From a virus (taxonomy: Duplodnaviria > Heunggongvirae > Uroviricota > Caudoviricetes): a stretch of DNA of 64,000 nt. Below the pieces are notes generated by a model. The model saw nothing but the letters and a program-made list of their open reading frames with translations, ran no database searches and was not told the DNA's origin. A program made the translations under genes and the position numbers. Location: IMG/VR virus record IMGVR_UViG_3300035208_003871; one strand, written 5' to 3'. Within the stretch, counting starts at the first letter, position 1; each line of letters begins with the position of its first letter. Below, piece after piece: positions 17,457-64,000 of the stretch.

Positions 17457-18344
17457 TTATGAGAAAATAATCTTGCTGCTTGCAGTCGTTTCTGCACGCC
17501 AATTAATTGTTTTCTCAAACTTATTACGTCCGGTAACATTGGCTGTAGCATCACTAATTTTACAATTTGGAATAGTAATTGTTCTGATTACAGATGTTCC
17601 GGTTGGTTCAGCTAATAGAATTTCTATTTCGCCAAATTCAATATCGTTTGCATTTGAAGACTGAACCACTCCGGGAAATGGATCGTCTGTGCTTAATGCA
17701 TTTTGCAAATCTGACCATTCTTTTGGTCCAAGTCCAATAGATCCAGAAACCGTAACTGCTCCACTCTGAACATAATCATCAAGATATTCGTGTCCAAGAA
17801 TGTAGTAATCCTGATCAATTGGTCGCTCTACCCTGACCGAAATGTTCATACATTTAATTGCAACAGAATTTACTGTAATTGTAGTGTTATAAAACACACT
17901 TACACTATTGGAATATGTTGGAGCAACACTAAATGAGTGAGTATCTGCACTAGCATCTCCACCAATCCAGTTAAATGATACTTTAGCAAAATCCTTTGTT
18001 TGAACATTCAAGTCCATAGAAGTAATCATAACAGATGCAACTTTGTATCCGTGACCAAACTCATCTGAAACATAAATATTGTTAAACCAAGCACCAGAAG
18101 CTGGCAATTCACCAAGTCCACTGGTTACTGCCTGTCCAAAAAGTTTTTCTACAATTACATCAAGATCGGTTCTGTATATTCCATCAATTGTTCCACTTGA
18201 GAGATAAGTTCCACCGAAAAGCTTAGATTCTCCAACGGCAGACATTGTTTCTTCAGCAATCAGATTTCTTGCAACGCTCATGCTAACACCGCTAACGGGT
18301 AGCAAAGTTGTACCATTTACTGAAAGACCTCTGTATGTTGCCAT
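17457..18344 (-). CDS. Major tail protein, paralogue B (295 aa).
   Basis: It lies immediately upstream of the chaperone genes. It shares motifs with the 379-aa neighbour: IDQDYYILGHEYLD versus MDQDYFYIGSEFLQ, and the C-terminus TGRNKFEKTINWRAE versus TGRNQFEKTVNWKAQ. Confidence 0.55.
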   Translation of the reverse strand: MATYRGLSVNGTTLLPVSGVSMSVARNLIAEETMSAVGESKLFGGTYLSSGTIDGIYRTDLDVIVEKLFGQAVTSGLGELPASGAWFNNIYVSDEFGHGYKVASVMITSMDLNVQTKDFAKVSFNWIGGDASADTHSFSVAPTYSNSVSVFYNTTITVNSVAIKCMNISVRVERPIDQDYYILGHEYLDDYVQSGAVTVSGSIGLGPKEWSDLQNALSTDDPFPGVVQSSNANDIEFGEIEILLAEPTGTSVIRTITIPNCKISDATANVTGRNKFEKTINWRAETTASSKIIFS

Positions 18345-30333: not shown

Positions 30334-30374
30334 GTAACCAATAAATTAATATATTTATATAACTATTTTTATAT

Positions 30375-30635
30375 ATGGATTGTTGTAAAACCTGCAAATA
30401 CTATTTCCCATATAAACTCGAAGATCGCCCATTCCACGGAAAGTGCCAAAGATTTCCACCCATTATAAGAAAGAAATCATATATGGGAGAGTTTCCAAAT
30501 ATCGCAGAATCATGTTGGTGTGGCGAATATACACTAAAAATAAATACAATAAATGAAACAAGTAAATATCCTAAACCGCCGGGCGTTTACATTAATCAAA
30601 TGCCATTAAAAGTAGGCGAATACGTCATCCGCTAA
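30375..30635 (+). CDS. Small Cys-rich protein (86 aa).
   Basis: MDCCKTCKYY...GKCQRF...ESCWCGEY. It lies in the plus-strand island with the GNAT gene. Confidence 0.4.
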   Translation: MDCCKTCKYYFPYKLEDRPFHGKCQRFPPIIRKKSYMGEFPNIAESCWCGEYTLKINTINETSKYPKPPGVYINQMPLKVGEYVIR

Positions 30636-30828: not shown

Positions 30829-31227
30829 TTACCATAAAAATTTCACGTTTGTAAATTCTTGCAGATCGGTTTTAATTCGCGGCTCGATAACTTTTTCCCA
30901 TATATAAAACTTGTTAGCGAGGCCAGCACCGAGTTTGGAGATTAAATAGATTTTATGGGGATTTCGTGCAATTTCGCTTTTTAATTTGAGGATTTCGTGA
31001 AGGTAAATTTTCTCATATTCGTCAGGTTTAAAGAATCCATGATCTTCATTTGTTGGACGCTTTTTGGTTATAAAACCGTATGTGTTTGGTTCATCGCGTA
31101 ATGCAGCTGCACCACCTTTTCCGGTTCTAAATGTGTTATCGCCATAAACAAATATTTGATCTGGGTATTTTAATAAGTGATCACGTGTCACGTGCATAAA
31201 AAGGTTAGTTCGTGGGGATAAATCCAC
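30829..31227 (-). CDS. Conserved hypothetical protein (132 aa) with the motif IFVYGDNTFRTGKGGAAALR.
   Basis: It overlaps the flotillin gene by 23 nt. The glycine-rich loop suggests a nucleotide or ADP-ribose binding fold. No family assignment was made. Confidence 0.45.
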   Translation of the reverse strand: MDLSPRTNLFMHVTRDHLLKYPDQIFVYGDNTFRTGKGGAAALRDEPNTYGFITKKRPTNEDHGFFKPDEYEKIYLHEILKLKSEIARNPHKIYLISKLGAGLANKFYIWEKVIEPRIKTDLQEFTNVKFLW

Positions 31228-33021: not shown

Positions 33022-33124
33022 CTATACATTAAATGGAGAAGTATTTATATGTTTTTAAGACGAAATTATAATAAGTAAATGTGTGCCGGTTTACTATGTT
33101 TATATAGTGTCAAATGGGGGTATC

Positions 33125-33316
33125 ATGTTAATAGAAATATCATTAGCAAATTTGTATATTGTAGGTGTGGTAATTATGTTTAGTGGGATTATTGCAATGT
33201 TTGTGTTTTATGATAATGTAATAATGAGAACTGTGGCATTATTTATTGGAATGCTCGCCTCAATGTGGGTTTATAGTACATTTCGGCTGGTTATTGGTAA
33301 TAATTTGGAGGAGTAA
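33125..33316 (+). CDS. Small membrane protein, the first gene of the plus-strand early-like operon.
   Basis: The ATG at 33125 is preceded by a TTTATATAG TATA-like box about 20 nt upstream. The product is hydrophobic (MLIEISLANLYIVGVVIMFSGIIAMFVFY...). Confidence 0.4.
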   Translation: MLIEISLANLYIVGVVIMFSGIIAMFVFYDNVIMRTVALFIGMLASMWVYSTFRLVIGNNLEE

Positions 33317-33696
33317 TGCCTGAATGGGAAGGTGAATATGGTGGATATGGTGGTAGTTATAGTGAAGATTATGCTGCAAGATTATCTCTTCAGCAATTGC
33401 GCGATGAAGTTATAAAGGTCGAGAATGAATTGAAAAATAAAAAAGAACAGCATTTAGTTGAAAATCAAACCAAATTAGATAAAAGTTGTATAGATCTTAT
33501 TAATACAATAAAGAAATTGACAGTAAATGGTGATGAATGCGTTGTATTTAAATGCAGCACATGTGGATACGCTCCATGTTATGTAGTAGTGAATTATCCG
33601 GCACAATTTGTGGGTATTGCAACGAAAAAATCGCCAGAAACATGTTTATTCAGAAGTGATATTAAGCCTAAATGGGAAGAATACAATGTTCATTGA
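33316..33696 (+). CDS. Hypothetical protein (126 aa) with a CSTCG...C motif.
   Basis: An ORF with a Gly/Tyr-rich N-terminus. Confidence 0.45.
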   Translation: MPEWEGEYGGYGGSYSEDYAARLSLQQLRDEVIKVENELKNKKEQHLVENQTKLDKSCIDLINTIKKLTVNGDECVVFKCSTCGYAPCYVVVNYPAQFVGIATKKSPETCLFRSDIKPKWEEYNVH

Positions 33697-33892
33697 ATTA
33701 TTTGCCGCGTTAATGCTTTGTGTTTTACTTTACTATGGATATTACATATTTAAGTTTACAGCCAAACTGTTTTACTATATTTATAAGTTTGGGTGTCGGG
33801 AAGATAGGGTGGTAATTGTTGTTGTCATTTTATTAGTTGTTTTGGGATTTCTCGCGCTTCTTGAGAAAAATGGTGCTAAATTTTATGGATGA
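33686..33892 (+). CDS. Small membrane protein.
   Basis: The ATG at 33686 overlaps the previous stop. Two hydrophobic helices. Confidence 0.35.
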   Translation: MFIELFAALMLCVLLYYGYYIFKFTAKLFYYIYKFGCREDRVVIVVVILLVVLGFLALLEKNGAKFYG

Positions 33893-34064
33893 AGTTAACA
33901 AGGTAACATTATGGACGTGCAACGATTGTGATACTCCATGTTTTGCTATTGTTAGATCGGTTGGTAAAGACAATGGCTCATTTCCGAGAGTTACTAATTG
34001 TTTGATTGGGAGTAAACAGCATGTTGATTGGAAGTTAATTGGATATGATAAACTTATTCAGTAA
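33885..34064 (+). CDS. Small Cys-containing protein.
   Basis: An ATGGATGA start/stop overlap. The product is MDEVNKVTLWTCNDCDTPCF... Confidence 0.35.
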   Translation: MDEVNKVTLWTCNDCDTPCFAIVRSVGKDNGSFPRVTNCLIGSKQHVDWKLIGYDKLIQ

Positions 34065-34095
34065 GAATTTTAAATGTAAAAAGCAATGGTTATAT

Positions 34096-34299
34096 ATGAG
34101 AACTAGATATAATTTTTTTACAAAGTGGCATCTGTTGTACGCAATTGTATGGTCTGCATTTACAGCACTTGTGGGAGTTTACATTGGAGTCAATTATAAT
34201 TATGCTGTAGCAATGATACTTTGTGGACTATCTATGTATTTTGTCGGTGTATTTATGGGAACATTCCTTGGCAAACAGCAAGTAAATGACTACGATTAA
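34096..34299 (+). CDS. Small membrane protein with two transmembrane helices.
   Basis: Hydrophobic segments WHLLYAIVWSAFTALVGVYIGV and AMILCGLSMYFVGVFMGTF. Confidence 0.35.
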   Translation: MRTRYNFFTKWHLLYAIVWSAFTALVGVYIGVNYNYAVAMILCGLSMYFVGVFMGTFLGKQQVNDYD

Positions 34300-34585
34300 A
34301 TTTCCTGATAAACCACCCAGATTTTTCAGTGACTTGGAGTTTGATGATATGGAGTTAAATGATAATTCTTGCCAGACTTGTGTAGCTGCAAGTGATACTG
34401 ATCGATGTAATGGATATCTCGATCTGAAATGTAATGTCGGATATCTTCTGGGATGGAATAAAGTTCCGTTTATGCAGCGATGTGAAGAGATTCGTAATAG
34501 GAATGAATCGGTAATTGAAGCTAAATATCCATGCAAATATCATATGACTGTGGAAAAGTTCGTTAAAAGAATCGATAATCCATGA
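34286..34585 (+). CDS. Cys-rich small protein (99 aa).
   Basis: CQTCVAASDTDRCNGY...CNVGY...CEEIRN...CKYH. Confidence 0.4.
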   Translation: MTTIKFPDKPPRFFSDLEFDDMELNDNSCQTCVAASDTDRCNGYLDLKCNVGYLLGWNKVPFMQRCEEIRNRNESVIEAKYPCKYHMTVEKFVKRIDNP

Positions 34586-34923
34586 GTGATAAAGCAGATC
34601 CTGAGATAGTGAATTTTATATTAAGGGATATGAATGAAAATCTAATTAACCGTATAGTGACAATTCGCAACCGTCAGAAGAAACATGATAACTTTATGGC
34701 TATGGATGAGGCTGTCCGGTTAATTGAGATGAAATGCCGTGGCATTGAAGGAAAAGAGTCATGGTATAAGGTTCTCGATAAACGGTGCCCTATATGTAAC
34801 ACCAAGTTGTTACAGTACATTGGTCCAAAAATGATGCTAAAATTAAATTGGAGTAGAGATCCAGTTGGTTATTGTATTCATTGTGAAAAAACCCTATTAT
34901 TAAATGGCGAAATAATACCATGA
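34582..34923 (+). CDS. C4 zinc-ribbon protein (113 aa).
   Basis: CPICNTKL...CIHCEK. An ATGA overlap with the upstream gene. Confidence 0.45.
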   Translation: MSDKADPEIVNFILRDMNENLINRIVTIRNRQKKHDNFMAMDEAVRLIEMKCRGIEGKESWYKVLDKRCPICNTKLLQYIGPKMMLKLNWSRDPVGYCIHCEKTLLLNGEIIP

Positions 34924-35090
34924 TTGCATCTGAATTGGTGAAGACACTCAATCATTACATAGAAATGTATGGTGATGAAAAAGTATTCATAGAATGCACA
35001 AACCGCGAAATTGCTGGTGGACATGATGTCTATTCTGTAGAGATGGATAAAAACTGTATAACATTGAAATGGAAGCCTTATCGTGAGTGA
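34920..35090 (+). CDS. Hypothetical 56-aa protein, a paralogue of 36873..37025.
   Basis: MIASELVKTLNHYIEMYGDEKVF aligns with MKASELIESLNYLINTYGDLSVF. Confidence 0.35.
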   Translation: MIASELVKTLNHYIEMYGDEKVFIECTNREIAGGHDVYSVEMDKNCITLKWKPYRE

Positions 35091-35298
35091 ATGTATACTG
35101 AAATGTCCAAAATGCGGGAAGCGGCAATCGATTGATAAAGAGATTTATGATCATTGCATGGAGATTAAAAAGTTAGCTGAAACTGATAATATTTTATGTA
35201 TGCCGCATCCATTTACATGTGGTGAATGCGGAGAAGAGCTGGAATTGTGGTTGCCGTTAAATGATAATATGAAATATGGATTTGGTTATGATTTATGA
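35083..35298 (+). CDS. Zinc-ribbon protein (71 aa).
   Basis: CPKCGKRQ...CGECGEE. Confidence 0.4.
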   Translation: MSECILKCPKCGKRQSIDKEIYDHCMEIKKLAETDNILCMPHPFTCGECGEELELWLPLNDNMKYGFGYDL

Positions 35299-35488
35299 AT
35301 TAATGATGGGTATGGCGCTGTTTATTATATTGGTATTGTATGCATTTTCGTTGTCTCTTGGCGTTTTCATGGGACTTGCGTTTATTTATAATATTCGTAT
35401 GAGGGAGTATTCCGAGGCGATAAAATGTGCAATTATTGGGTTTGTATGTTTGATTCCAACATTTTTTATATTAGGGACGGCAATATGA
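35276..35488 (+). CDS. Small membrane protein (70 aa).
   Basis: Two hydrophobic helices. Confidence 0.35.
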   Translation: MDLVMIYELMMGMALFIILVLYAFSLSLGVFMGLAFIYNIRMREYSEAIKCAIIGFVCLIPTFFILGTAI

Positions 35489-35494
35489 GGAATA

Positions 35495-35926
35495 ATGATT
35501 ATATTAGCATGTGATGGCGGATGCAGATTAACCAGAAAAGATAGGTTAGGCGCGTGGGCCTACACAATAATTGAGGATGGAGAGATTGTCGCCAGCGATA
35601 GTGGAATTGAATTGGATACCACCGTTAATAGATGTGAATACCGGGCACTGCTTGAGGGATTGGGTGCTATTGGAATTGCTTGTAAAGGGCACGATGTTAG
35701 AATTATATCGGATTCACAACTTTTGATTTATCAAGTGACGGGCAAGTGGAAAGTTAATGATATTACATTACAAGAGTTAAAAAGTAAAGTACTTAGAGTT
35801 GGAGGTATAATGTTACATGGCTGTAATGTAGAGTTTGTGTGGATGGCACGAGATAATGAATGGACTGCAAGATGCGATAAAATGTGCAATATCGCAATGG
35901 ACCATTACATTGAGGAACATGGATGA
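35495..35926 (+). CDS. rnhA: Ribonuclease H (RNase HI-like), 143 aa.
   Basis: RNase H fold signature: ILACDGG...AWAY, then CEYRALLEGL, then IISDSQLLIYQVTGKWKV, then ARDNEWTARCDKMCNIA. Confidence 0.7.
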   Translation: MIILACDGGCRLTRKDRLGAWAYTIIEDGEIVASDSGIELDTTVNRCEYRALLEGLGAIGIACKGHDVRIISDSQLLIYQVTGKWKVNDITLQELKSKVLRVGGIMLHGCNVEFVWMARDNEWTARCDKMCNIAMDHYIEEHG

Positions 35927-36257
35927 AATTATGACGGATGTTGACATAATAACGGCGATGGAATTGTATGAGAAATCCATTCAACAATTCCATGTTATGG
36001 CAAAAGCAGTTGCAAATGACGATGAGTTTAGAAAATCAAATCCGACAGTGCAGACGTTAATTAAATTTAAAGGAGCGATTCGGGATTTGTATAATGAATT
36101 AGATTTTCAGATAGCCGTCACTTCAAAATTTATTGAAATGGCACCAAATGTTTCTGATTTATTATGGAAAAGGATTGATGAGACGATTATCATTGGTAAA
36201 ACTTTACAGGAAAAAACCGGTATAGAATGGGAGGCATTGCCGCAATGGACGAAGTAA
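35919..36257 (+). CDS. Hypothetical protein (113 aa).
   Basis: The ATG at 35919 overlaps the RNase H stop. The ORF track places the start upstream, inside RNase H. Confidence 0.4.
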   Translation: MDEIMTDVDIITAMELYEKSIQQFHVMAKAVANDDEFRKSNPTVQTLIKFKGAIRDLYNELDFQIAVTSKFIEMAPNVSDLLWKRIDETIIIGKTLQEKTGIEWEALPQWTK

Positions 36258-36532
36258 TCTGTCATAAGTGTGAGTATTTTGATTGGACTGATGAAGAAGA
36301 GTGGTGTAATAATAGTGGTGAATTATTGGGAGATATAACGTGTGGAAATACTACTAAAAGTGAATGTGACGATTTTAGGGAACGGGAAATAGGTATCGAT
36401 TTTGCAATTGGCGAAGATAGATCGGGATATATCTTTTGTAAATTTACGAAGTGTGAAAAATGTGGCAAACTGGTTCTTGGATTAATAGATACAGAGCATC
36501 ATGTGTGCCAAGAATGCAAACGTGTTGATTAA
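36227..36532 (+). CDS. Zinc-ribbon protein.
   Basis: CHKCEYF...CGN...CEKCGK...CQECK. The likely true start is the internal MDEV at about 36245. Confidence 0.4.
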   Translation: MGGIAAMDEVICHKCEYFDWTDEEEWCNNSGELLGDITCGNTTKSECDDFREREIGIDFAIGEDRSGYIFCKFTKCEKCGKLVLGLIDTEHHVCQECKRVD

Positions 36533-36710
36533 ATCTATGAAAACAGTACAAAACTTAGTTGATGAATTAACTAAGTATGATCCAACTTTCGGGATTGTAA
36601 TTTATGCCGATATCAGAGTGTATAAAACTCCAATAACGGGCAGCCTTGATTATATTGGTACAATTCCAAGTAATATAGGGTACTCAAGTATCGAGGATTA
36701 TGATGAGTGA
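36501..36710 (+). CDS. Hypothetical 69-aa protein.
   Basis: ORF only. Confidence 0.3.
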   Translation: MCAKNANVLIKSMKTVQNLVDELTKYDPTFGIVIYADIRVYKTPITGSLDYIGTIPSNIGYSSIEDYDE

Positions 36711-36873
36711 TTTTCATCCTTGTGCAAAATGCGTGTGGACAGATATAGATTGTGAGGTGTGCAATAATCCATTATCTGATGTTTACAATATCGATTACAT
36801 GGAATCCAGATGCAATTATTACCTTGATGAGTATGATCTTCGTGAAATATATACAGAGTTAGGTGTTTGTTAA
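36703..36873 (+). CDS. Small Cys-rich protein (56 aa).
   Basis: MSDFHPCAKCVWTDIDCEVCNN...RCNYY. Confidence 0.3.
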   Translation: MSDFHPCAKCVWTDIDCEVCNNPLSDVYNIDYMESRCNYYLDEYDLREIYTELGVC

Positions 36874-37025
36874 TGAAAGCAAGTGAGTTAATCGAATCAT
36901 TAAATTATCTAATAAATACATATGGAGATTTATCAGTATTTACTGAGCATGAAAATAATGATCAGATATATGTTATTACACTTCCTGATATTGGTTTTAT
37001 AATTTCAAAGGATGGATCTCCATGA
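36873..37025 (+). CDS. Hypothetical 50-aa protein, a paralogue of 34920..35090.
   Basis: TAATG and ATGA overlaps on both sides. Confidence 0.3.
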   Translation: MKASELIESLNYLINTYGDLSVFTEHENNDQIYVITLPDIGFIISKDGSP

Positions 37026-37303
37026 GTGATGATTATTTAACTGATACAGTTGTGAAATTTCCACCAAATGTTGTCGGGAGGTTTATTGGTGGTCGTTTTA
37101 TCCCGGAAGGCAGTGATTTAAAGGTTTTTATATTTGAGTGTAATGAGTGCAGTTTTCTACAACCATGTCGTTATAGCAGAGTAAGCAGCGATAGCGAAGT
37201 CGATGATCCAATTAATTGTCCAAATTGTCATGCTTATATACCTGATTGGAGTAGAGTAGAATTTTTGGAGTGGAAAAATTCCAGTGTGGTGAAAGATGAG
37301 TAA
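37022..37303 (+). CDS. Zinc-ribbon protein (93 aa).
   Basis: CNECSF...CPNCHAY. Confidence 0.4.
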   Translation: MSDDYLTDTVVKFPPNVVGRFIGGRFIPEGSDLKVFIFECNECSFLQPCRYSRVSSDSEVDDPINCPNCHAYIPDWSRVEFLEWKNSSVVKDE

Positions 37304-37583
37304 TTGGGGAGATGGGCACTGGTTAACTCCTGAGCGAATGGAGTTTCACCGGTTATCGACTAAAGTGTGGTTTCGAGGATCTGTTACCACAATTGGTGAA
37401 ATGGAACGCCAGTTAATTAATGAAGAATTAGATCGGTTGTATCCCATGGGTGATAACAAAGATGAAAACATCAAAATTATGGGCAAGCATTTAGAAAAAG
37501 TCCTTGATACAAAATGGAGATATGATTATTTACTGTCATTGGATCCTGATAGGCATTATAAATCCAAACGGGTGAAATCATGA
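37296..37583 (+). CDS. Hypothetical protein (95 aa).
   Basis: ORF in the operon. Confidence 0.4.
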   Translation: MSNWGDGHWLTPERMEFHRLSTKVWFRGSVTTIGEMERQLINEELDRLYPMGDNKDENIKIMGKHLEKVLDTKWRYDYLLSLDPDRHYKSKRVKS

Positions 37584-37771
37584 AATGGATGGATAATATT
37601 TTAAATGGTAATATTAAACCTGAGAGCGTTAAATCTGAAAGCAGTTATCATTCACCTATGGATTGCCCAAATATGGAATTAAAATGGGATGATGGTGGGT
37701 GCTATCCTAAAAAACATGTTAAATATTGTGAGTATTGTAGTTCTGAATTGTGGAAAGATGAAGAATTATGA
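37580..37771 (+). CDS. Small Cys protein (63 aa).
   Basis: CPNME...CYP...CEYCSS. Confidence 0.35.
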   Translation: MKWMDNILNGNIKPESVKSESSYHSPMDCPNMELKWDDGGCYPKKHVKYCEYCSSELWKDEEL

Positions 37772-37980
37772 AAAATTTGCCAATTATTCGAGCAGTATTT
37801 TGTCCATGGACTCATCAACTTCACGATATAGGCTTATGTGCTGATTGTTGTGATCATTATTCAGGTGATGGTCAGGACATTGATGGAATGAAATGCAACT
37901 ACGTAGAACATTGTCCCAATGAACCCAACTATTCATGGAAACGAAACCTTGAAGAATCATACAGGAAGTTAAACCAATGA
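37768..37980 (+). CDS. Small Cys-rich protein (70 aa).
   Basis: CPWTH...CADCCDHY...CNYVEHCPNE. Confidence 0.35.
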   Translation: MKNLPIIRAVFCPWTHQLHDIGLCADCCDHYSGDGQDIDGMKCNYVEHCPNEPNYSWKRNLEESYRKLNQ

Positions 37981-38101
37981 AAACAGAGCAGGAGATACGA
38001 GGGCGGATTGAATCGCTTGAAAAGTTACTCAAAACATTTGGATTTGATTGTTCAATAGAAGCCTCAAGATTACAATTACAATGGGTTCTCGGTGAGGAGT
38101 C

Positions 38102-38326
38102 ATGAAGAAGTATTTTGTTATGTGTGAAGGATCTTATGATTTTTTCGATACAGAAGAAGAGGCAGTTAAATACGCAGAATCGTTAATTGAAGATTTTTTA
38201 GATGGCAATGAGTGGGAATGTGAAAATGATGACATATTCTGGGGAGAAGTAAAGCAAAGTGGTAAATTTGAGAAGGTTGAATGTAATCCAGATGCATATG
38301 TTTATGCTCTAGAGGATGTATCATGA
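38102..38326 (+). CDS. Acidic small protein (74 aa).
   Basis: ORF. Confidence 0.35.
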   Translation: MKKYFVMCEGSYDFFDTEEEAVKYAESLIEDFLDGNEWECENDDIFWGEVKQSGKFEKVECNPDAYVYALEDVS

Positions 38327-38428
38327 ATGATAATTATTACCACACTGAACCAATTGAACCATTTGTTTGGTGTGTTTTGGCCGAGATGCACATACCATTA
38401 AAGTTGTGTCGCCAGTGCAAAAATAACG

Positions 38429-38761
38429 TTGGAATGGATGAACAAACAATTAACTGTAAATGTGGTCCAACTCATGAATGATAATCGTCCATGTACTGGA
38501 TTTTGCAATGAACGATCTTATTGCGTGTTTTTAAATGGTGAATTTGACGAATGCTTCAATAATGAGGTTTACCAAAAACGATCTAAATTAGAAAACACCC
38601 TAGTTGATAAATGTCATAAGAAATTCAAGGGATCCGTTGAAGAGTGGCAAGCATTATTAGATCGAATTTACCGGGAAGTTTGTGAAACGTATCCCTGTAG
38701 GTACAACGTTAACAAGAATGAAGTTGTTAAATTAATCGATGACAATGATGGAGTAAAATAA
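38429..38761 (+). CDS. Cys-containing protein. The real start is probably the internal MNDNRPC at about 38476. A 52-aa zinc-ribbon ORF lies at 38323..38481.
   Basis: ORF. ATGAATGA-type overlap. Confidence 0.35.
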   Translation: MEWMNKQLTVNVVQLMNDNRPCTGFCNERSYCVFLNGEFDECFNNEVYQKRSKLENTLVDKCHKKFKGSVEEWQALLDRIYREVCETYPCRYNVNKNEVVKLIDDNDGVK

Positions 38762-39021
38762 TGAAGTTGACCTGTCTATGTAAAAAATTAATCTATGATG
38801 CAAAGGATCCTATAGTAATGGTGGGTATTTTGTTTTTGTTTGTGGCAGTGTGGCATATTGTTGCATACTCGCTGGCTTACTTCTTTCCAATTATACCAAC
38901 CGACTGTGCTCAATTATACTTAGTTATTACAGGATTGCTCATGTTACTGGCGTTATTTGCTTCATGGTTCTATACGTGGATAACTGGAGCCATTGATTAC
39001 TGCAGGAGAATTCACGATTAA
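38761..39021 (+). CDS. Small membrane protein (86 aa).
   Basis: Two hydrophobic helices. Confidence 0.35.
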   Translation: MKLTCLCKKLIYDAKDPIVMVGILFLFVAVWHIVAYSLAYFFPIIPTDCAQLYLVITGLLMLLALFASWFYTWITGAIDYCRRIHD

Positions 39022-39022
39022 C

Positions 39023-39235
39023 ATGACACACGACATTTACAAACCTTGTTATAAAAGTTATACGGCAATATTCATAGGATCTGAACACGATTTTGCGTTA
39101 TTCGTACCATCTTGTGGCTCTTGTATGCATGGAAACTTCACCCAATACAAAGTTTGTCCAAACCTTCACGAAGATGATCGCATCCCACAAAACTTCATGA
39201 ATCATCTAAACAACACAATTAGGTGTAAGGATTAA
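39023..39235 (+). CDS. Cys/His-rich small protein.
   Basis: The ATG at 39023 is preceded by AGGAGA. The product is MTHDIYKPCYKSY...CGSCMHG. Confidence 0.35.
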   Translation: MTHDIYKPCYKSYTAIFIGSEHDFALFVPSCGSCMHGNFTQYKVCPNLHEDDRIPQNFMNHLNNTIRCKD

Positions 39236-39236
39236 C

Positions 39237-39425
39237 ATGTTTACAAATAACAATTCTGAATGGAGATGTGATTATTGTAATGTATTATTTAATGGGCTTG
39301 AGGCAGTTCAGAATGTAATATGCATTAAGGAAGGTAATAACGAATCTATGCATTTTTGTAACTATGATCATGCTGCTAAACATTTTGCATGTAAAGCATT
39401 GGGAAATAATGACAATCGATCTTGA
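39237..39425 (+). CDS. Small Cys protein (62 aa).
   Basis: CDYCNVLF...HFCNYDH. Confidence 0.35.
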   Translation: MFTNNNSEWRCDYCNVLFNGLEAVQNVICIKEGNNESMHFCNYDHAAKHFACKALGNNDNRS

Positions 39426-39570
39426 TACTATTTTTAAATTAAAGAAACAGGCAATGAAAAATTGTGAGGATCGGATTCATGAAGCTGCTTCACATCATCC
39501 CCCGGTTAGTGATAAATCGGACGAATCTTATGGAATGACATCTGTTTTACGAAAGCGTCACGGATTGTAA
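39364..39570 (+). CDS. Hypothetical protein.
   Basis: It overlaps the previous ORF, so the start is uncertain. Confidence 0.25.
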   Translation: MIMLLNILHVKHWEIMTIDLDTIFKLKKQAMKNCEDRIHEAASHHPPVSDKSDESYGMTSVLRKRHGL

Positions 39571-39755
39571 ACAATGCTAATCTGGATAGATTTTACTAAA
39601 ATAATTAAATGTGTAAAGTGGTTAATTATAATTGGTTTACTTTTACTGGTTGTTTATTATTGTTATGCTCATTTGCGGATCGATATTATTAAAAGGTCGG
39701 GTGGATATGAAATTTTTATAACTCATTGCGTTAACTTTATGTGCAATTAAGTTAA

Positions 39756-40004
39756 TTGTTAATTATGCAACATAAACTTATTCATATGTTAGGTCCACTG
39801 AATAATGTTACAATTCCGATGTTATATGAGATTCGGGATGGAATAAAATATACACAGGATTACTCAGATTATCTTGATGCGCTGAATAGCTTATATATTG
39901 AGAAGTGGATTGATGGATACTCTGATGACAATGATGATTGCGTGTGGATATTGACGGTTGAGGGACGCAAATTACTAAGTATTTTAGATGATATTATTAT
40001 TTAA
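39756..40004 (+). CDS. Hypothetical 82-aa protein.
   Basis: ORF. Confidence 0.3.
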   Translation: MLIMQHKLIHMLGPLNNVTIPMLYEIRDGIKYTQDYSDYLDALNSLYIEKWIDGYSDDNDDCVWILTVEGRKLLSILDDIII

Positions 40005-40879: not shown

Positions 40880-41086
40880 TTACTCGGTGGCAATTTTTAC
40901 ATCTTCGGGCTTTGCAGTTTTGCGCTTGGCATGAGTTGTAAGGAGTTTAATCTGTTTTGACCACCCGGTTCCAATTGCAGAGAGTTTCTTGTCGAACTCG
41001 ATAGCTGCTTCACGTGACACACGCTCGATACCATTGGCTTTCATCAATCTGACAATAGCCGCTAAAGGAAATGTCGTTTCTGACAT
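40880..41086 (-). CDS. Archaeal-type histone (histone-fold, HMf family), 68 aa.
   Basis: FPLAAIVRLMKANGIERVSREAAIEF...HAKRKTAKPEDVKIA matches HMfB-type histones residue by residue: PIAPIGRIIK-AGAERVS, then the RKT-x-K-x-ED signature. Confidence 0.8.
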   Translation of the reverse strand: MSETTFPLAAIVRLMKANGIERVSREAAIEFDKKLSAIGTGWSKQIKLLTTHAKRKTAKPEDVKIATE

Positions 41087-41452: not shown

Positions 41453-41586
41453 TTATATGATCACTATTATGATATTTGTTTTACTTCGACTTAAAGATTT
41501 GGGCTTAAACCGCGTCAATCTAAAATAGTTAACATGAAGTATTATCAATTTATATAATTTACAAAACAGTCTGAACAAAGAAAAAC

Positions 41587-41830: not shown

Positions 41831-42608
41831 TCTTTCTTTGTTGTTGTTAAGAGATTTTGGCAGGTGACGCGACTTCGGCCTAAACCAATGCTGTTTTGTT
41901 GAGTTTTTTATATTTTGTTTGATTATTAGTGTTTTTTCTGTTTAATTCATAATTATTTTGTAATTTATTATTTGTTGTTTTATTTTTATCTTAATTTGTT
42001 TAGTTTTGGGTATGAGATGACCCTCTTATGTATTTTAATTATAATTATTTTGGGTATGAGATTTTTATTTGGTTTTGTGGAAGTTGTTTTGTGTTTGGTG
42101 GTTTTGTTGGGGTTAGATCTCATAACTAAAGTTCATAATTATTTGTGTATGAGTTTGAGTTTGGTTATGAGAAGAGTGCCTTGTTTTTTATTGTTGTTAT
42201 TTTCGGTATGGATATGAAGAGGGTGCTTTATAGGGGCTTTTATAAAACGGTTCGCGGGTTGAACCGAATCGTGCTGTGACGATTTATACTATTATGTTGG
42301 TTTGCATACTATATAACTTCGCGGTTTACAGTATATAAAGGAAGAGTGATTAGTCCTTATTGGACATGTAGACAAACGTGGCAAATGCAATTAATAGGAA
42401 TGGAACGATTTGTTTTTCAGGGTATATTTTGTATGAGGTGTCAAATATACTGAACACGAGATCTCCAAGTATCCAACCAGCTGATAGACTGAGTGGTAAA
42501 GAGATTAGTGGCGTAGGATGTTGCATGATAATATTTTGGTGTGTTGTTATTTAAATATAATTGACATATAGATTTATTTGATTGTAAGTTGATATTTATG
42601 AAGCGGGT

Positions 42609-42872
42609 TTGTTAGGTTTATATATGGTAAAACTTGTGGATTACTTGGACGATGTAGGGTGGGATGGTTTGATGGGGAGGTGGGTTCAAAGTGTTAAGCT
42701 TTATTTGTTTCCACAGGATTGTTGTATGAACTGCGTGTATATGGGATTTAAGAGGGGGCACGCGGGAAACGGTGTAATGTTAATGTATTATTGTTCATGT
42801 TTTAAGACGGTTTTGGTATTGCATAATGTTGGTAGTTGTTGTGGCAGTTATAGGAGGAGTAATTCTTGGTAA
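42609..42872 (+). CDS. Member 1 of a tandem family of cytosine-poor small Trp/Cys/Gly proteins.
   Basis: The motif DCCMNCVY. A second ATG lies at 42624, just after CTAGGTTTATATATGG. Confidence 0.35.
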   Translation: MLGLYMVKLVDYLDDVGWDGLMGRWVQSVKLYLFPQDCCMNCVYMGFKRGHAGNGVMLMYYCSCFKTVLVLHNVGSCCGSYRRSNSW

Positions 42873-43084
42873 ACGATTTGGATCGTGATATGCGGAGATT
42901 TTTGTGGGATATTCGAAAGTTTTTGATTACTAGTGAAGTTTGTTTATGTTGCGAGAAATTGATGGTTAGGAGGAGGGATGGCGCCGTTGTATGCGATTTG
43001 GACGATGATGAGATGCAATTGAAATTTTTGAATAATTATAGATGTGATTTTTGGGTGGTGAGGCATGGATGGGACACTGGATAG
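42866..43084 (+). CDS. Tandem family member 2.
   Basis: CLCCEKLMVRRRDG. It overlaps its neighbours. Confidence 0.3.
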   Translation: MVNDLDRDMRRFLWDIRKFLITSEVCLCCEKLMVRRRDGAVVCDLDDDEMQLKFLNNYRCDFWVVRHGWDTG

Positions 43085-43283
43085 TTTGATGTGTGAATGG
43101 ATTATTTGCAATCGGGATTATTTGGTGTGTACATATGGGTTTAGGCAGATGTGTTGGAACTGTGTTTATAGTGGGAAATCTGTGAATTTGGGGCAGTATG
43201 TTTGTTTTATTAGACCGATGGATAAATCGAGGAGTCCGTATTTTACTTGTGTTAAGTGGATTAAGATTAAGATACCGGGTTGA
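43065..43283 (+). CDS. Tandem family member 3.
   Basis: RQMCWNCVYSGKS. Confidence 0.35.
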   Translation: MDGTLDSLMCEWIICNRDYLVCTYGFRQMCWNCVYSGKSVNLGQYVCFIRPMDKSRSPYFTCVKWIKIKIPG

Positions 43284-43320
43284 ATTGTAAACAGGAGATT
43301 ACTAATGGTGTTTAGATGTT

Positions 43321-43686
43321 ATGACTTTGTTAGATTTGTATCCTGATGGATCGTATTCGGTGTTCGAGGATGTTGATGGGGATACGTTTAGTTTGAGGAT
43401 GAGGGGGTTTGTAATTGGAGTTAAGGAGGATTTGTTAAATTATAGCTGGGAGATGTACTCGGGGAGGAAGTATAGGATCACGGATGTGGATTGTCGGAAA
43501 TGTTGTTATTGTATGTATGAGTATGGTCGTGCGTTTCCGGAGATACAGGTAGATGGACATTGGATGCCCACGGTGTTGTTTTGTCGGTATAGTGGGGATG
43601 TATTGAGTTTTGATTTTATGAGGATCAGACAGAAGGTGAATAGACCGTGTAGGAATTATAAATTGGATGAGGATGCGGGGTGGTAA
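43321..43686 (+). CDS. Tandem family member 4.
   Basis: CRKCCYCMYEYGRAF. Confidence 0.3.
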   Translation: MTLLDLYPDGSYSVFEDVDGDTFSLRMRGFVIGVKEDLLNYSWEMYSGRKYRITDVDCRKCCYCMYEYGRAFPEIQVDGHWMPTVLFCRYSGDVLSFDFMRIRQKVNRPCRNYKLDEDAGW

Positions 43687-43883
43687 TTTTGAATGAGATA
43701 TCTGATTATTTTATGGATGCTGGTGGGTATTGTAATTGTTGTTGGATTTGTGTTCATTTGTACAGGGGAAAGATGGGTCATAAGGGACCGTTTTGTGCAG
43801 GAAAGAATAGACATATATTTAAACCGCTGGCCTTTTGTTTTGAGTTTAGATTGGTGAGTGCAATGGAGCTAAAGGGAAGATGA
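43680..43883 (+). CDS. Tandem family member 5.
   Basis: CNCCWICVHLYRGK. Confidence 0.3.
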   Translation: MVILNEISDYFMDAGGYCNCCWICVHLYRGKMGHKGPFCAGKNRHIFKPLAFCFEFRLVSAMELKGR

Positions 43884-44140
43884 ACAATGAGTTAACATTT
43901 ATGATGGTGGATTTTGTAAAGGAATGTGGGTTTCATTTGCTGAATATTTCGAGAAAATTTGGTGAAATGGGAACTTGCTTTCATTGCGATTATTGTAGTG
44001 TTGTACATTATAAGGTGGTTGATGGAGAGTGGGAAACTGATATTATATGTTGGAAGAATAGTTATTTTGGAGAAAGGGACTGTATGAGTTGGGGAATGGC
44101 AACTGCTCATGTGATTTGTAGTGGATTTGTGCCGCGTTGA
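43880..44140 (+). CDS. Tandem family member 6.
   Basis: CFHCDYCSVVHY. Confidence 0.3.
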   Translation: MNNELTFMMVDFVKECGFHLLNISRKFGEMGTCFHCDYCSVVHYKVVDGEWETDIICWKNSYFGERDCMSWGMATAHVICSGFVPR

Positions 44141-44152
44141 CTAGGTTTATAT

Positions 44153-44383
44153 ATGGTAAATCGGGAGTTTGATGAGCAGATGTGGGTTTGGTGGAGTAAT
44201 GTCGATCATTTGATTAGGAGGCATACTGGCGTTGGGAGGGCATGTTGGAACTGTTATAATAGTAAGCGTTTACCTGATGAATTTTATGGTGAGTTTTTTT
44301 ATTTGTTTTATTGTAGTAGGGACAATCGGGTAATAACGCATGTGATAAAGCAGGTTTGTGATTGGTGGGAATTCCGTGGATGA
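44153..44383 (+). CDS. Tandem family member 7.
   Basis: GRACWNCYNSKR. The start follows CTAGGTTTATATATGG. Confidence 0.35.
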   Translation: MVNREFDEQMWVWWSNVDHLIRRHTGVGRACWNCYNSKRLPDEFYGEFFYLFYCSRDNRVITHVIKQVCDWWEFRG

Positions 44384-44678
44384 TAATTGGATTGTTACCG
44401 AATATTATAGGAGTATGGTATTAGATGATTCTGTGGATTCGTCTGTGGATTTGTTTAGTGAACTAATGAGATCTTGGGTGAATAATATGATTCCGTGGTT
44501 TGGTGCGAATGTCGGATTGCGGATGATGTGTTGGAATTGTAGGTTTATTGGTAAACGGACTGGTGGAGGATTTTTGTGCATGAACAAATCAACAGAACAA
44601 TTTAATATGGAACTTTGTGATGATTGGAAGTTCAATTCATATGCATGGAGTTTAGATTGGTGGGCATTTCGAGAATGA
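44358..44678 (+). CDS. Tandem family member 8.
   Basis: RMMCWNCRFIGKRTGG. Confidence 0.35.
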   Translation: MIGGNSVDDNWIVTEYYRSMVLDDSVDSSVDLFSELMRSWVNNMIPWFGANVGLRMMCWNCRFIGKRTGGGFLCMNKSTEQFNMELCDDWKFNSYAWSLDWWAFRE

Positions 44679-44926
44679 AACCAACTGGTTTATCAACTGG
44701 TATGAGCGATTTTGATTTATTAGTAAAAAATTTTGTAAGGGATGTGTGCAGGAATACCGGGGTGTGTGCTTTTGTCAGGTGCAATTGCTTGACTTGTACG
44801 TTTTCGGCTAGGTTGATCACAATTGATAATTTACTTTTGGGAGTGCTTTATTGTCAGAGTTCAAGAAAGGTAGTTAGAAATGATTTGGTTTGCGGCAATT
44901 GGGATAGCAGGTTAAGAGGTTACTAG
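44624..44926 (+). CDS. Tandem family member 9.
   Basis: CAFVRCNCLTCTF. Confidence 0.3.
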   Translation: MEVQFICMEFRLVGISRMKPTGLSTGMSDFDLLVKNFVRDVCRNTGVCAFVRCNCLTCTFSARLITIDNLLLGVLYCQSSRKVVRNDLVCGNWDSRLRGY

Positions 44927-45253
44927 GTTTATATAGTGTAAATACCGGAAGTTATATACGTTCAGACGAAGTATTATAGGTATGGAACATTTAACGATTA
45001 TGGGTGTAATTAAAAGGAAGTGTTTATTATAAACTTTCAGGTGTGGGCAGGCATTGGACTGTTACTTGTGGGATTGGACTTGATAGTCGAGTGTCAATAT
45101 GCATGGTGTGAGAAATGGCGGGTTCCAGTTGGATCGGTCTTTGTGTTTACTGCGTTACTTATTTTCTGGGCTAATTGGTGAATTATTCGGGTTGTAGGGT
45201 GGAATGAGCGTTAGCGAATGGCCCTACTTGGGCAAACTGGTAAGTAGGGCGTT

Positions 45254-45446
45254 CATTTCGGCTTAAAACTTTTTGATTATTGCGACAAAGTGACGTGATC
45301 ATTGTCGTGATAGATACTTCGGCTTAAACACTTCGTCTGGTTTATTTGGAAAAACTTAATTCTTGGATACTTCGTCTTAAAATATATTCTTCGGGGTATG
45401 GGGTATAACGAACCGTAGGTGAGTGGCCCCATTCGGCTTAAAATAT
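45254..45446. repeat. Four direct repeats of TTCGGCTTAAAA (one copy is TTCGTCTTAAAA), spaced 53-61 bp apart.
   Basis: The copies are at approx. 45258, 45319, 45372 and 45432. Confidence 0.7.
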
Positions 45447-45519: not shown

Positions 45520-46002
45520 TTTTTGGGTGGAAGGAAGCTTCCTTCATGGGTATATAAAGGTATCGGATTGGGTGTACGATATGGAAATGTTTATATAGTG
45601 CATGTGGAATGATGTTACCAGTGAGAGTATATAAAGGTTTCGATTTGATTTTCGGTTCAAGTATATAAGGTTAACTGTTAGCGCGCTGTACAATTTAGTA
45701 ATAATAAACCAGTTGGTAGTATGATGCGCGGTGTTACGATTTTTTAATTGGTATTACGATTCAATAGGGCTTTCAGCGCGTTCATTTCTCTTAACCCTTA
45801 ATATCATTCGATTAATCATAAGGGTACTGAGGCGTAGCTTCAACCTTGATACCTTTACATGAAGGTTATATGGGCTTCTTTTTGAAATTGGAGGCCAATT
45901 CACGGTGTGATGAGATGGAATGACACTGTTTGTCATGGGTATATAAAGATGCCGGTGGAAGGAAGCTTCGTATGTGGGTATATAAATGTGTCGATTTGAA
46001 CC
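45520..46002. promoter_or_regulatory. A cluster of five GGGTATATAAAGG TATA-like boxes, some preceded by the palindrome GAAGGAAGCTTCCTTC.
   Basis: The boxes are at approx. 45548, 45627, 45660, 45937 and 45976. Each is followed by G-T-x-T-C-G-A-T-T-T-G-A. A perfect 16-bp palindrome lies at 45525-45540. Confidence 0.55.
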
Positions 46003-46019
46003 GGTATGACGCGCGATTA

Positions 46020-46560
46020 ATATAGTAACACGATTATATAATTGGTGATTTATATTAATAATTTTATATTATGTGGATTATATAATCTGAATATTATAAA
46101 AAAACTTTTATAAAATTATTTTTATTGAGTTGTACTTATTTATATTTTCGTAGCAGTGATATCACTGATTTTTATGTGATGTGGAATATATTAATAGGAA
46201 TATATTCAGGTTTTTATATTTTTGTTAATATAATTTTAGGGATTATATAATGGAGCTGGTTATATATTCCACACTATTATAAAACTATTTTTATAAATCT
46301 GTTATTATAAATCTATTATTATAATTATCAAATTATAAATCCATTATTATATTTCTATTATTATATAATGCATAGATAAATATTAAGTTTTTTATATTGA
46401 TTTCTTTATATTATTTCTTTTATATTACGACTAATATATTATTACTTTAATATCACTTTTAGTATAATTTATAGAGTATATTTTATGGAATATAAAATTA
46501 CTTATATAATTACTCTGATTATATATTAACAGGTAAAATATAACTGTTTGTCATATAATG
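46020..46560. repeat. An extremely AT-rich stretch with short direct repeats (TTATTATAAATC x3-4), which could be a DNA-unwinding element.
   Basis: Composition and the repeats at 46295-46345. Confidence 0.5.
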
Positions 46561-46866: not shown

Positions 46867-47503
46867 TGCATCTATACGCACATATCAGAACGGTATTGAA
46901 GGAAAAAATCTATCCCTTATACTCTTATGATCTCAAAACCTCATGATACCGTTTGAATATGAGAATAGTAAAATGAAACAATTTAACAGTATATAAACCA
47001 ACAATATTTATATGTATTACACATTATAAAAGATAAGCGCTGACCGTATAACCATTAGAATTAAAAAATAACCTCATAAATTCATAATTTTTAAATCCTC
47101 TATTTTTCCCGTTTATTTCGGTCTTTCCTGAAGCTTTAACGGTCTTATTCTCTTATCCTTGTCACAAAGAATATATACTATCTTAGATAGATAATATACT
47201 GTATAGAACGTGAGAAGGGAAAGATTAGCGACTCAGCGCTGATATCCCTTTGATTCATCCGCTAAAAGTGCTGAGGGTTCTCATGGGTTAAATCCCTTTA
47301 ATTTTCATAATATCCGTTTTATCCCTCTTTTTTGTCATAATCTCTTCTTACCGGGATGGATTTTCAGAGTTAAAAGAACCAGTTAAATTTATTTCTTGTA
47401 AAAAATCTATGAAAAACAACTAAAAATTAATTAAAATCTCTTAAATCTCTTTATTTGAGTATAAACCCTTAAACGGGGTACATCAAATCAAAGGAGTAAA
47501 AAC

Positions 47504-54951: not shown

Positions 54952-55884
54952 ATGGCTTGGAAAACAAATGATAAAAACACTGACAAAACAGAAAAGAAAA
55001 GCGTTTACGAAATTATCACTGATCGCGTTATCCAATTAATAGAAAGTGGACAGCTAAACTGGAAGAAAACATGGGCTTTACAAGAACCTATGAATTATGT
55101 TTCAGGTAAAAAGTACAATGGAATCAACCATATACTATTATCATGCATGGGCTTCTCTTCTCCATATTGGCTAACATATAAACAAGCTACAGATATGGGC
55201 GGAAACATCAAAAAAGGTTCAAAAGGAGTCCCTGTAGTGTATTTCGCACGTAAAGAGTCAAAAGATAAAAAAGTTCTTAAAAACGGTACTGAAAAAGCTC
55301 AGTTTTATGTAATCCTTCGGTATTACACAGTATTTAATACTGAACAATGTGAGAACATCCCAGAAAAAAGTTATAACGCACCAATTATCAGAGACCATTC
55401 AGAAATTGAAACCTTAATTTCAGCACACAACCCTGAGTTGAGTAGAGGTAATCCAGCTTATTCACCCGGAATGGATATCATCTATATGCCCGATATCAAG
55501 GAATTCAGCTCACAGAACAACTATTATAAAACCTTCTTTCACGAAATGAGTCACTGGACAGGTCATAAAGACCGATTGAACAGGGATGAAGTCACTCGCA
55601 AATCTGGTCGTTTCGGAGATGAAGATTACTCCAAAGAAGAGCTTGTCGCTGAGTTAAGTGCAGCATTTATCAGCTCTATATATAATATCTCATCAGACGA
55701 CACAGAAGCAAACACAGCTGCTTACATCCAGTCGTGGATCAAAGTATTGAAGAATGATCCAAAGATGATTATAAGTGCCTCCAGTAGAGCACAAAAAGCA
55801 ACTGAGTTTCTTCTTAAACCAGTATCAAATAATATAGAAGTTTCAGAAGTTTCAGAAAAAACTGAAGATGGTGTATATGCATAA
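54952..55884 (+). CDS. ardC: ArdC-like antirestriction protein: an ssDNA-binding N-domain plus a zincin metalloprotease domain (310 aa).
   Basis: An N-terminal ArdC-N-like region (WKKTW...YNGINHILL...YWLTYKQATDMGGNIKKGSKGVPVVY) and a C-terminal HExxH motif (FFHEMSHWTGH), as in ArdC / DUF1738 proteins. Confidence 0.75.
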   Translation: MAWKTNDKNTDKTEKKSVYEIITDRVIQLIESGQLNWKKTWALQEPMNYVSGKKYNGINHILLSCMGFSSPYWLTYKQATDMGGNIKKGSKGVPVVYFARKESKDKKVLKNGTEKAQFYVILRYYTVFNTEQCENIPEKSYNAPIIRDHSEIETLISAHNPELSRGNPAYSPGMDIIYMPDIKEFSSQNNYYKTFFHEMSHWTGHKDRLNRDEVTRKSGRFGDEDYSKEELVAELSAAFISSIYNISSDDTEANTAAYIQSWIKVLKNDPKMIISASSRAQKATEFLLKPVSNNIEVSEVSEKTEDGVYA

Positions 55885-63905: not shown

Positions 63906-64000
63906 ATTTTTTCCAGTAAAGTTTTACAGTATATAAACCTAATAAACTAACATTAATGGTGGTGAAATGTCAGATAAATTAAATGAAAATGATTCAGAAA

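Follow-up and report, generated by a model that had tools for sequence, protein, structure and literature searches.

A tandem family of small four-cysteine proteins encoded on a G+T-rich strand of an uncultivated tailed virus

The DNA analyzed here is a 64,000-nt stretch, referred to as the window, of an uncultivated tailed virus (Caudoviricetes; IMG/VR record IMGVR_UViG_3300035208_003871), and its feature under study is an array of nine consecutive small open reading frames (ORF1–ORF9) on the plus strand at 42609–44926. With a probability of roughly 0.6 for the reading as a whole, the array encodes small four-cysteine proteins of one family that is lineage-specific and arose by tandem duplication, its genes being organized in units punctuated by a 20-nt box and carried on a keto-skewed (G+T-rich) strand. 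Judged from their substitution patterns, the ORFs are real protein-coding genes under purifying selection, and the array represents a previously undescribed protein family.

All nine consecutive ORFs of 67–121 aa listed in the initial annotation, which was made from the sequence without database searches, are present, and 98.7% of 42609–44926 lies in stop-free runs of 60 codons or more. The composition of the array predicts a high stop frequency (0.079 per codon), and the coverage simulated in 2000 first-order Markov sequences of the same composition had a mean of 16% and a maximum of 59%. Selection was assessed with near-identical contigs (98.7–100%) from at least six other metagenome samples or read sets, the strain variants named below being L005, L007, and L008, and with three divergent relatives, the metagenome contigs L011, L012, and L014. 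Against L005, ORF1–5 gave a pooled ratio of nonsynonymous to synonymous polymorphism (pN/pS) of 0.22. Against L011, the corresponding ratio of substitution rates (dN/dS) in the annotated frame was 0.41 for ORF8, 0.19 for ORF4, and 0.28 for ORF5, compared with 0.6–3.9 in the other forward frames, and the 24-nt indel that separates ORF8 from its L011 counterpart is in frame. The ORF1, ORF7, and ORF8 orthologues in L012 gave dN/dS of 0.30–0.52 (orthologue values overall, 0.30–0.53), with silent sites largely saturated. When all six frames were pooled, the sense frame had a pN/pS of 0.38 and two stops, and the other frames had 0.44–1.6 and 10–40 stops, the value of 0.44 being that of the antisense frame whose codons are aligned with those of the sense frame, so that both have their third positions in common. 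Taken over the comparisons, pN/pS or dN/dS is 0.15–0.5 in the annotated frame and about 0.9–1.6 in most other frames.

These results bear on the alternative raised in the initial annotation, namely that the region is structured and strand-biased but does not code for protein; it might be an RNA or an origin-associated repeat, with ORFs that are by-products of a stop-poor composition. The composition is indeed extreme, the antisense strand also contains long stop-free runs, and the array RNA folds marginally better than shuffled sequences (z of −1.9 and −2.2). However, the composition predicts more stops than are found and the simulations never reach the observed coverage, the purifying selection is specific to the annotated frame, and the orthologues keep their protein motifs though their silent sites are saturated. 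A scan of 40–48 kb against Rfam gave no match, and the folding energy is ordinary for this genome. Values of dN/dS near 1 without codon bias, which would speak for a non-coding repeat, were not found in the strain variants or the orthologues. On the strength of the low in-frame dN/dS, the in-frame ORF8 indel, the missing Rfam match, and the folding close to that of shuffles, the non-coding alternative is rejected as far as sequence analysis reaches and can hardly be right, and the proposal of protein genes holds.

ORF1 (42624–42872, 82 aa, motif CMNC; pN/pS 0.21 against L005, dN/dS 0.34 against L012; profile matches P0006 and P0012) had been given a TTG start at 42609, which lies upstream of the conserved N-terminus. 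The ATG at 42624 falls inside the first box, and the N-terminal MVKLVDYLD can be aligned with the L012 and L014 orthologues. ORF2 (42866–43084, 72 aa, CLCC) has AGGAGG as its Shine–Dalgarno sequence and meets the ORF1 stop in a TTGGTAA junction, and its pN/pS against L005 is 0.15, with 10 of 18 substitutions synonymous. ORF3 (43065–43283, 72 aa, CWNC) is followed by ORF4 (43321–43686, 121 aa), which consists of an N-terminal extension and a Cys4 module (CCYC), and by ORF5 (43680–43883, 67 aa, CWIC), which has a GTGGTAA junction with the ORF4 stop. At both of these NTGGTAA junctions (ORF1/2 and ORF4/5), TGG-TAA closes the upstream gene and NTG-GTA-A opens the next. The remaining genes are ORF6 (43880–44140, 86 aa, CFHC; GenBank MFA5760221.1), ORF7 (44153–44383, 76 aa, CWNC; 71% identical to P0009, dN/dS 0.52 against L012), ORF8 (44358–44678, up to 106 aa with an alternative GTG start at 44376, CWNC; dN/dS 0.30 against L012), and ORF9 (44675–44926, 84 aa, CNCLTC; orthologue P0008, further match P0013). 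The ATG of ORF9 at 44675 forms an ATGA overlap with the ORF8 stop, and the TTG start at 44624 proposed for it earlier is unsupported. The earlier statement that the ORFs overlap by 4–50 nt therefore stands in part: most neighbors overlap by 4–26 nt, a short gap parts ORF3 from ORF4 and ORF6 from ORF7, and a 55-nt overlap of ORF8 and ORF9 would need the doubtful TTG start. Shine–Dalgarno-like motifs were found upstream of 22 of 33 genes in the genome. A 54-aa ORF in an alternative frame inside ORF5 (43693–43857, plus strand), which encodes a hydrophobic helix and is open in L011 and L007, is probably no gene, with a pN/pS of 0.61 compared with 0.28 for ORF5. By consecutive accession numbers, ORF6 is the first protein that GenBank lists after the histone encoded just before the array; ORF1–5 are apparently unannotated, and ORF3 and ORF4 were confirmed to be absent from NCBI. 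The array genes have largely been missed by standard annotation, probably because of their atypical codon usage.

The relationship among the genes was examined in an alignment of 26 sequences, in which the nine genes of the window were joined by their orthologues and by the genes of L012 and L014. Four cysteines are invariant and nothing else is, the mean column identity being ~20%. The family pattern is CxxC-x(9-17)-C-x(11-18)-C-x2-[WFY], preceded by an N-terminal helix with [FL]-x3-M-x2-[WF]. The CWNC-encoding sequence TGTTGGAAYTGT occurs at 43152, 44243, and 44529, with 0.01 occurrences expected; the earlier report of this shared sequence at 43153, 44241, and 44530 is borne out, the true positions being 1–2 nt off. 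Pairwise similarity between the array proteins is weak, the best E-value being 1e-5 (ORF3–ORF8). Among the window genes, leave-one-out profiles recovered ORF7, ORF8, ORF1, and ORF3 with E-values of 3e-6 to 1e-3 (the last being that of ORF3), ORF2 with 0.03, and the borderline ORF5 and ORF9 with ~0.17. A profile built from L012 and L014 genes only found ORF7, ORF1, ORF8, ORF2, and ORF3 at E-values of at most 2e-5 and ORF5 and ORF9 at 0.02, and these seven of the nine window genes are accordingly regarded as demonstrably or probably homologous. The idea of an expanded multigene family is thus upheld for a tandem four-cysteine family with seven of nine members linked by profiles, and falls short for ORF4 and ORF6, which are not tied to it by sequence statistics. 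An ORF of normal composition at 30363–30632 was a candidate for a tenth member but was rejected (hhalign probability 6.6%).

Searched exhaustively by profile, 1.84 billion representative proteins yielded 11 matches; two are spurious repeat proteins, and the rest belong to this virus or to relatives of it. Pfam-A and PHROG scans, run with the nine ORFs and then with all 26 members, gave no match with E < 0.02, and a profile search of the PDB gave chance matches only. The full-family alignment is too divergent for a locus search. With the ORF8 subfamily as query, none was found in IMG/VR and GTDB genomes, and only the same virus was found in JGI metagenomes; relatives sought in IMG/VR through the neighboring 431-aa gene were not found, and megablast of 41–47 kb against INPHARED phages gave no match. 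At the sequence level, the family is lineage-specific, without known relatives, and new.

The four invariant cysteines point to zinc binding by the family proteins: together they would coordinate a single zinc ion within a small fold made of a knuckle and a hairpin. AlphaFold predicted a helix followed by three short strands in two models, at low confidence (pLDDT 53 and 57). The position of the array and its evolutionary behavior suggest an accessory role for the proteins, which would bind components of the host for take-over or anti-defense. If so, nine or more paralogues on a simple Cys4 scaffold would form an easily tested set. Several observations weigh against this picture. ORF4 and ORF6 were not scored by the leave-one-out family profiles and have only the cysteine pattern in common with the others. 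The AlphaFold models are poor, and Foldseek searches of the PDB with them gave no match with E < 6. The second half of the supposed metal site consists of two lone cysteines 11–18 residues apart, with no second CxxC knuckle. No functional homologue of the family was found in Pfam, PHROG, the PDB, or the 1.84 billion proteins.

The array is also a local hot spot of single-nucleotide differences from the strain variants, and the earlier description of it as a hypervariable cassette is supported, as gene order, number, and integrity differ between relatives. L011 carries an ORF8-like, an ORF4-like, and an ORF5-like gene, then a box and an unrelated gene. In L012, a box is followed by at least nine members in a partly different order, including clear ORF1, ORF7, and ORF8 orthologues and members that are absent from the window. 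About 54 of the 65 differences from L005 over 8.6 kb fall in 41998–43840, which suggests a recombined patch. In L005, L007, and L008, a 2-nt insertion after 43476 and a GTG-to-ATG change at 43486 divide ORF4 into two genes, one of 95 aa and the other a stand-alone Cys4 gene of 66 aa, and the L011 homologue of ORF4 has a 20-nt deletion, with an intact 129-aa version also existing. The family turns over quickly through reordering, gain and loss, fission, and recombination.

The out-of-frame indels in ORF4 (+2 in L005, L007, and L008; −20 in L011) are a point against the reading of an intact functional family, since they suggest that part of the array may be decaying. Carried further, the array would be largely decaying or selfish duplicated DNA with few functional copies, the rest being young pseudogenes that are open by chance. 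Besides the frame-breaking indels of ORF4 in two lineages, the dN/dS of 0.3–0.5, which is relaxed compared with core genes, and the missing family signal of ORF4 and ORF6 fit such decay. All nine frames, however, are open in this genome, pN/pS is below 0.55 in every testable gene, and the break in ORF4 is paired with a new ATG that keeps the Cys4 module, while the 129-aa version is intact, so that wholesale decay is improbable.

The 20-nt box has the consensus yTAGGTTTATATAyrGTAAA and occurs in at least seven copies. The sequence CTAGGTTTATATATGGTAAA is found at 42612 (one mismatch), 44141 (exact), and 44923 (two mismatches), with 0.01 occurrences expected, so that the repeated box reported earlier at 42614, 44142, and 44924 is real and its coordinates are right within 1–2 nt. 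Box 1 (TTAGGTTTATATATGGTAAA, 42612–42631, plus strand) stands at the head of the array and holds the ORF1 ATG at 42624; box 2, the exact CTAGGTTTATATATGGTAAA (44141–44160, plus strand), holds the ORF7 ATG at 44153; and box 3 (CTAGGTTTATATAGTGTAAA, 44923–44942, plus strand) overlaps the ORF9 stop and is followed by a 53-aa hydrophobic ORF that is not of the family. The box is conserved in L011, L012, and L014. It is composed of a Shine–Dalgarno-like AGGT, the core TTTATATA, and a start codon; the core is invariant in the three array boxes, the minus-strand copies at 63940 and 47000, and the L011, L012, and L014 boxes, and the other listed copies differ from it by one base. In five cases, the ATG of the box is the start codon of a gene whose N-terminus (MVK, MVN) is conserved among orthologues, and the AGGT lies 7 nt upstream of this ATG, matching the Shine–Dalgarno use of the genome. 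In L011, the gene upstream of the box takes its final residues and its stop codon from the box sequence as well.

Outside the array, a box-like copy (ACTATGTTTATATAGTGTCAAA, 33094–33113, plus strand) stands at the head of a rightward block of small early-type genes. Minus-strand copies lie at 46983–47002, pointing into an AT-rich repeat region with no ORF behind, and at 63923–63942, again with no ORF behind, and a degenerate copy lies at 30894–30913 (minus strand). The ORF-less copies and the copy heading the early block argue for a promoter role. The box may thus be a phage-specific module at which both transcription and translation start and which, in addition, marks junctions of duplication and recombination; as a promoter plus translation-start module, it would make two or three polycistronic units of the array. 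Not all features of the box agree with promoter activity: three copies have no ORF behind them, and an ATG inside the TTTATATA box fits neither the −10/+1 geometry of sigma-70 nor an archaeal TATA box at −26. The core does match TTTAWATA, the archaeal TATA-box sequence, but the start of a gene or transcript 25–30 nt downstream is missing, the start codon lying inside the box or 2 nt after it in the five cases. With regard to sigma-70, a TTGACT-like hexamer is just 5 nt from TATATA, and a promoter consensus scan placed no promoter-like site on any box, the sites in the region being not significantly above those of shuffles. No stem-loop was found beside the boxes when 100 nt around four of them were folded (z of −0.2 to +1.7), and no terminator-like site was found next to any box.

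The 53-aa ORF after box 3 (45020–45181, plus strand) has the DNA ATATGCATGG..GG (repeat D5) in common with the 3' end of ORF8, and owing to this shared repeat it may be the remnant of a tenth family member. Other repeats surround the array. In a 45-nt element present in three copies (45526–45570, 45603–45647, and 45954–45998), a near-palindrome (best copy, GGAAGGAAGCTTCCTTC) is linked to GGGTATATAAAGGT; a further short copy lies at 45933, and the element may be a second type of promoter or operator or a set of small RNA genes. The motif CTTCGGCTTAAA has 12 matches with at most two mismatches, compared with 4.7 expected; four copies spaced 53–61 nt apart lie at 45256–45442, just after the array, and further copies are found just before it at 41484, 41498, and 41873, and on the minus strand at 40419 and 54057. 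The segment 41900–42220 is very T-rich (T 50–60%, C 3.5–9%) with repeated TTTGGGTATGAGAT, and contains an 81-aa highly hydrophobic ORF (41972–42217) whose frame is kept in strain variants by a paired +2/−2 change. Directly upstream of the array, on the opposite strand, a small ORF (42350–42526) apparently encodes a membrane protein and is, by eye, conserved in L012 at 758–949 (minus strand).

The plus strand of 42609–44926 consists of 25.6% A, 8.1% C, 30.6% G, and 35.8% T, and the GC skew in three 1-kb windows across the array is +0.54, +0.61, and +0.53, compared with at most +0.38 elsewhere in the 64 kb. Base counts and sliding-window skew both agree with the strong G+T bias and very low C reported for 42.6–44.9 kb. 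The keto-skewed domain is ~2.7 kb long, and genes outside it in the same genome lack the skew. Cytosine poverty at silent sites, in contrast, is genome-wide, a point missed in the initial annotation: third-position C is low in all genes of the virus (5–12.5% at Gly and Val fourfold sites), and what is anomalous in the array is a synonymous shift toward keto bases. Arg is encoded as AGR in 74% of cases in the array (42–59% in the other gene sets), Leu as TTR in 83% (56–69%), and Ser as AGY in 57% (25–49%), so that the Arg and Leu codon families starting with C are under-used; NNY codons end in C in 12% (21–31%), NNR codons end in G in 66% (22–31%), and A makes up 17% of third codon positions as against 30% of first and second positions, a difference that also speaks for coding. 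The early genes at 33–41 kb do not have this synonymous usage. Amino-acid usage is likewise tilted to C-free codons, with Cys at 7.0%, Trp at 3.9%, and Val at 8.5%, and Ala, Pro, Thr, Gln, and His scarce. The Trp richness noted earlier, like the Cys richness, is partly a by-product of the G+T composition, although the four Cys columns are invariant. The arrays of L011, L012, and L014 have the same composition (C 8–10%, G 27–32%), and in L012 the skewed composition begins at the box. As the codon bias is common to lineages with saturated silent sites (dS > 1), it is actively maintained. Silent-site usage thus switches sharply within one virus genome, and divergent relatives keep the same bias.

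Two sources would contribute to the G+T-rich, C-poor strand: an amino-acid usage that prefers C-free codons, and a continuing bias of the sense strand at silent sites, from C to T and from A to G, as expected when the non-template strand is often single-stranded through very heavy transcription or R-loops. Exposure by heavy transcription or R-loops is the most likely cause of the skew, on mixed evidence. If strand-specific damage or a C-targeting host factor is the cause, the array would serve as a natural reporter of such damage or targeting. Three features are at odds with a mutational origin: at Gly and Val fourfold sites, G is raised and A is unchanged, with no clean deamination signature; the C that remains in the array has just a weak context bias; and the unrelated gene that immediately follows the box in L011 is rich in A and not in G+T. 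A footprint of deaminase motifs was looked for in the array, and just the weak context bias was seen.

Alternatively, the skew may be selected and not mutational, with C avoided and G preferred over A in order to escape a host factor acting on C-containing single-stranded DNA or RNA (a deaminase or a sequence-specific endoribonuclease) or to suit a different expression regime. The synonymous families starting with C are avoided beyond protein requirements, the bias is retained in relatives despite saturated silent sites, and it is tied to the family genes, with its onset at the box in L012. However, no specific motif is depleted (TC is at 0.73 of expectation, and ACA and the other counted C-containing trinucleotides are still present), no candidate host factor is known, and the array mRNA is not less structured than other mRNAs, which makes selection an unlikely cause. 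An unstructured C-poor mRNA was ruled out, as the mean minimum free energy (MFE) per 150 nt is −28.9 in the array and −23 to −30.5 in other genes; the antisense strand of the array alone is unstructured (−8.3). A broader proposal, also quite unlikely, is that the array is a compositional island kept by strand-specific deamination, or by selection against it, on an exposed sense strand; it would be the footprint of a host deaminase-type defense on the first-expressed phage DNA or RNA, or an R-loop module coupled to a nearby origin-like region, and the new Cys4 family would have evolved in a near three-letter (G, T, A) code.

The origin-like region is the AT-rich segment at 46000–46520, with a GC content of ~13–20%, 14-nt tandem repeats (TATTATAAATCTAT-like, at least five copies at 46275–46372), and many inverted repeats, which looks like a replication origin. 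To the right of these repeats, box copies lie at 46559 (plus strand) and 47000 (minus strand). In a further explanation, the G-rich sense strand would serve replication: array transcripts paired with the C-rich template would form stable R-loops from which DNA synthesis is primed in the AT-rich iteron region at 46.0–46.5 kb, with coding secondary. GC skew is known to favor R-loops (PMC10030826), the skew of +0.55 to +0.60 lies directly upstream of the AT-rich region with its 14-nt tandem repeats and flanking boxes, and GGG runs number 17.9 per kb in the array compared with 4.1 per kb elsewhere. Nevertheless, no canonical G-quadruplex motif was found in the array, ~1 kb of other sequence separates it from the AT-rich repeats, and the genes are clearly under protein-level selection; the related arrays lie on contigs too short for a comparison of their surroundings. 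A primary role in replication is accordingly doubtful, and a family of protein genes on a heavily exposed strand remains the preferred reading.

The virus itself is represented by a contig of 154,370 nt (ENA ERZ27247350), and a 155.3-kb GenBank version is labeled 'MAG: Dehalococcoidales bacterium'. By coordinate mapping (L001), the ENA contig ends at about position 60389 of the window, and the window runs beyond this end to 64000, as would fit a genome that is circular or circularly permuted. Minus-strand genes occupy 1–33 kb and include recognizable genes for the tail tube protein (17457–18344), the portal (24536–26287), and the large terminase (26547–28220), the last only 24% identical to that of the nearest cultured phage, Microcystis phage Ma-LMM01. 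The virus is thus very divergent, and the array belongs to its accessory region. A 3326-aa ORF at 6168–16148 (minus strand) had no match in Pfam, PHROG, or the PDB, and its candidacy as a virion RNA polymerase found no support. The rightward block at 33083–40004 (plus strand) contains ~30 small genes packed closely together, many of which encode CxxC pairs (one or two each), and an RNase H gene (35495–35926), with a GC skew of +0.16 to +0.38 and normal synonymous codon usage. Between this block and the array lies a short pair of leftward genes, one of which encodes a 68-aa archaeal-type nucleosomal histone with the histone fold (40880–41086, minus strand; PF00808, NF043032), whose best PDB relatives are HMfA and HMfB (E 2e-7). 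Further to the right, the window encodes an ArdC-like anti-restriction protein with a zincin peptidase domain (54952–55884, plus strand) and, at 60170–61561 (plus strand), an HD-domain enzyme of the class II CCA-adding or poly(A) polymerase-like type. The host signals are therefore mixed, with an archaeal HMf-type histone on one side and a bacterial class II CCA enzyme and ArdC-like protein on the other, and a histone-based search identified no host.

Small C4 zinc-ribbon or zinc-knuckle proteins are common among phage early and accessory genes. The array proteins resemble them in their size (65–120 aa), in the four invariant cysteines, in the CxxC knuckle followed by predicted beta-strands, and in their location among small early-type genes, many of which also have CxxC pairs. 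Unlike in C4 zinc ribbons, the second cysteine pair of the array proteins is made of single cysteines and not a CxxC, no sequence or fold match was found in Pfam, PHROG, or the PDB, and metal binding is predicted only. At the level of gene organization, the array recalls the PeSLs of T4-type phages, composite early-promoter and stem-loop elements in hyperplastic regions (PMC2839356, PMC4122927), where a short conserved motif likewise flanks lineage-variable blocks of small ORFs and gene content and order vary at the motif. Boxes stand at the head, inside, and at the end of the array, and a different gene follows the box in L011. The box differs from a PeSL in that it has no adjacent stem-loop and overlaps the start codon, and the array ORFs are one paralogous family and not unrelated ORFans. 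With respect to composition, the G+T excess that single-strand deamination leaves on non-template strands is established (PMC10030826), and the sense strand of the array is similar to such single-strand-exposed DNA in that G+T is up and C+A is down, synonymous sites included; it differs in its unusual magnitude (GC skew ~0.6, C 8%) and in its confinement to a ~2.7-kb domain. The array is thus of a familiar kind, an expansion of small accessory genes with a regulatory motif, whereas its protein family and its local compositional regime are new.

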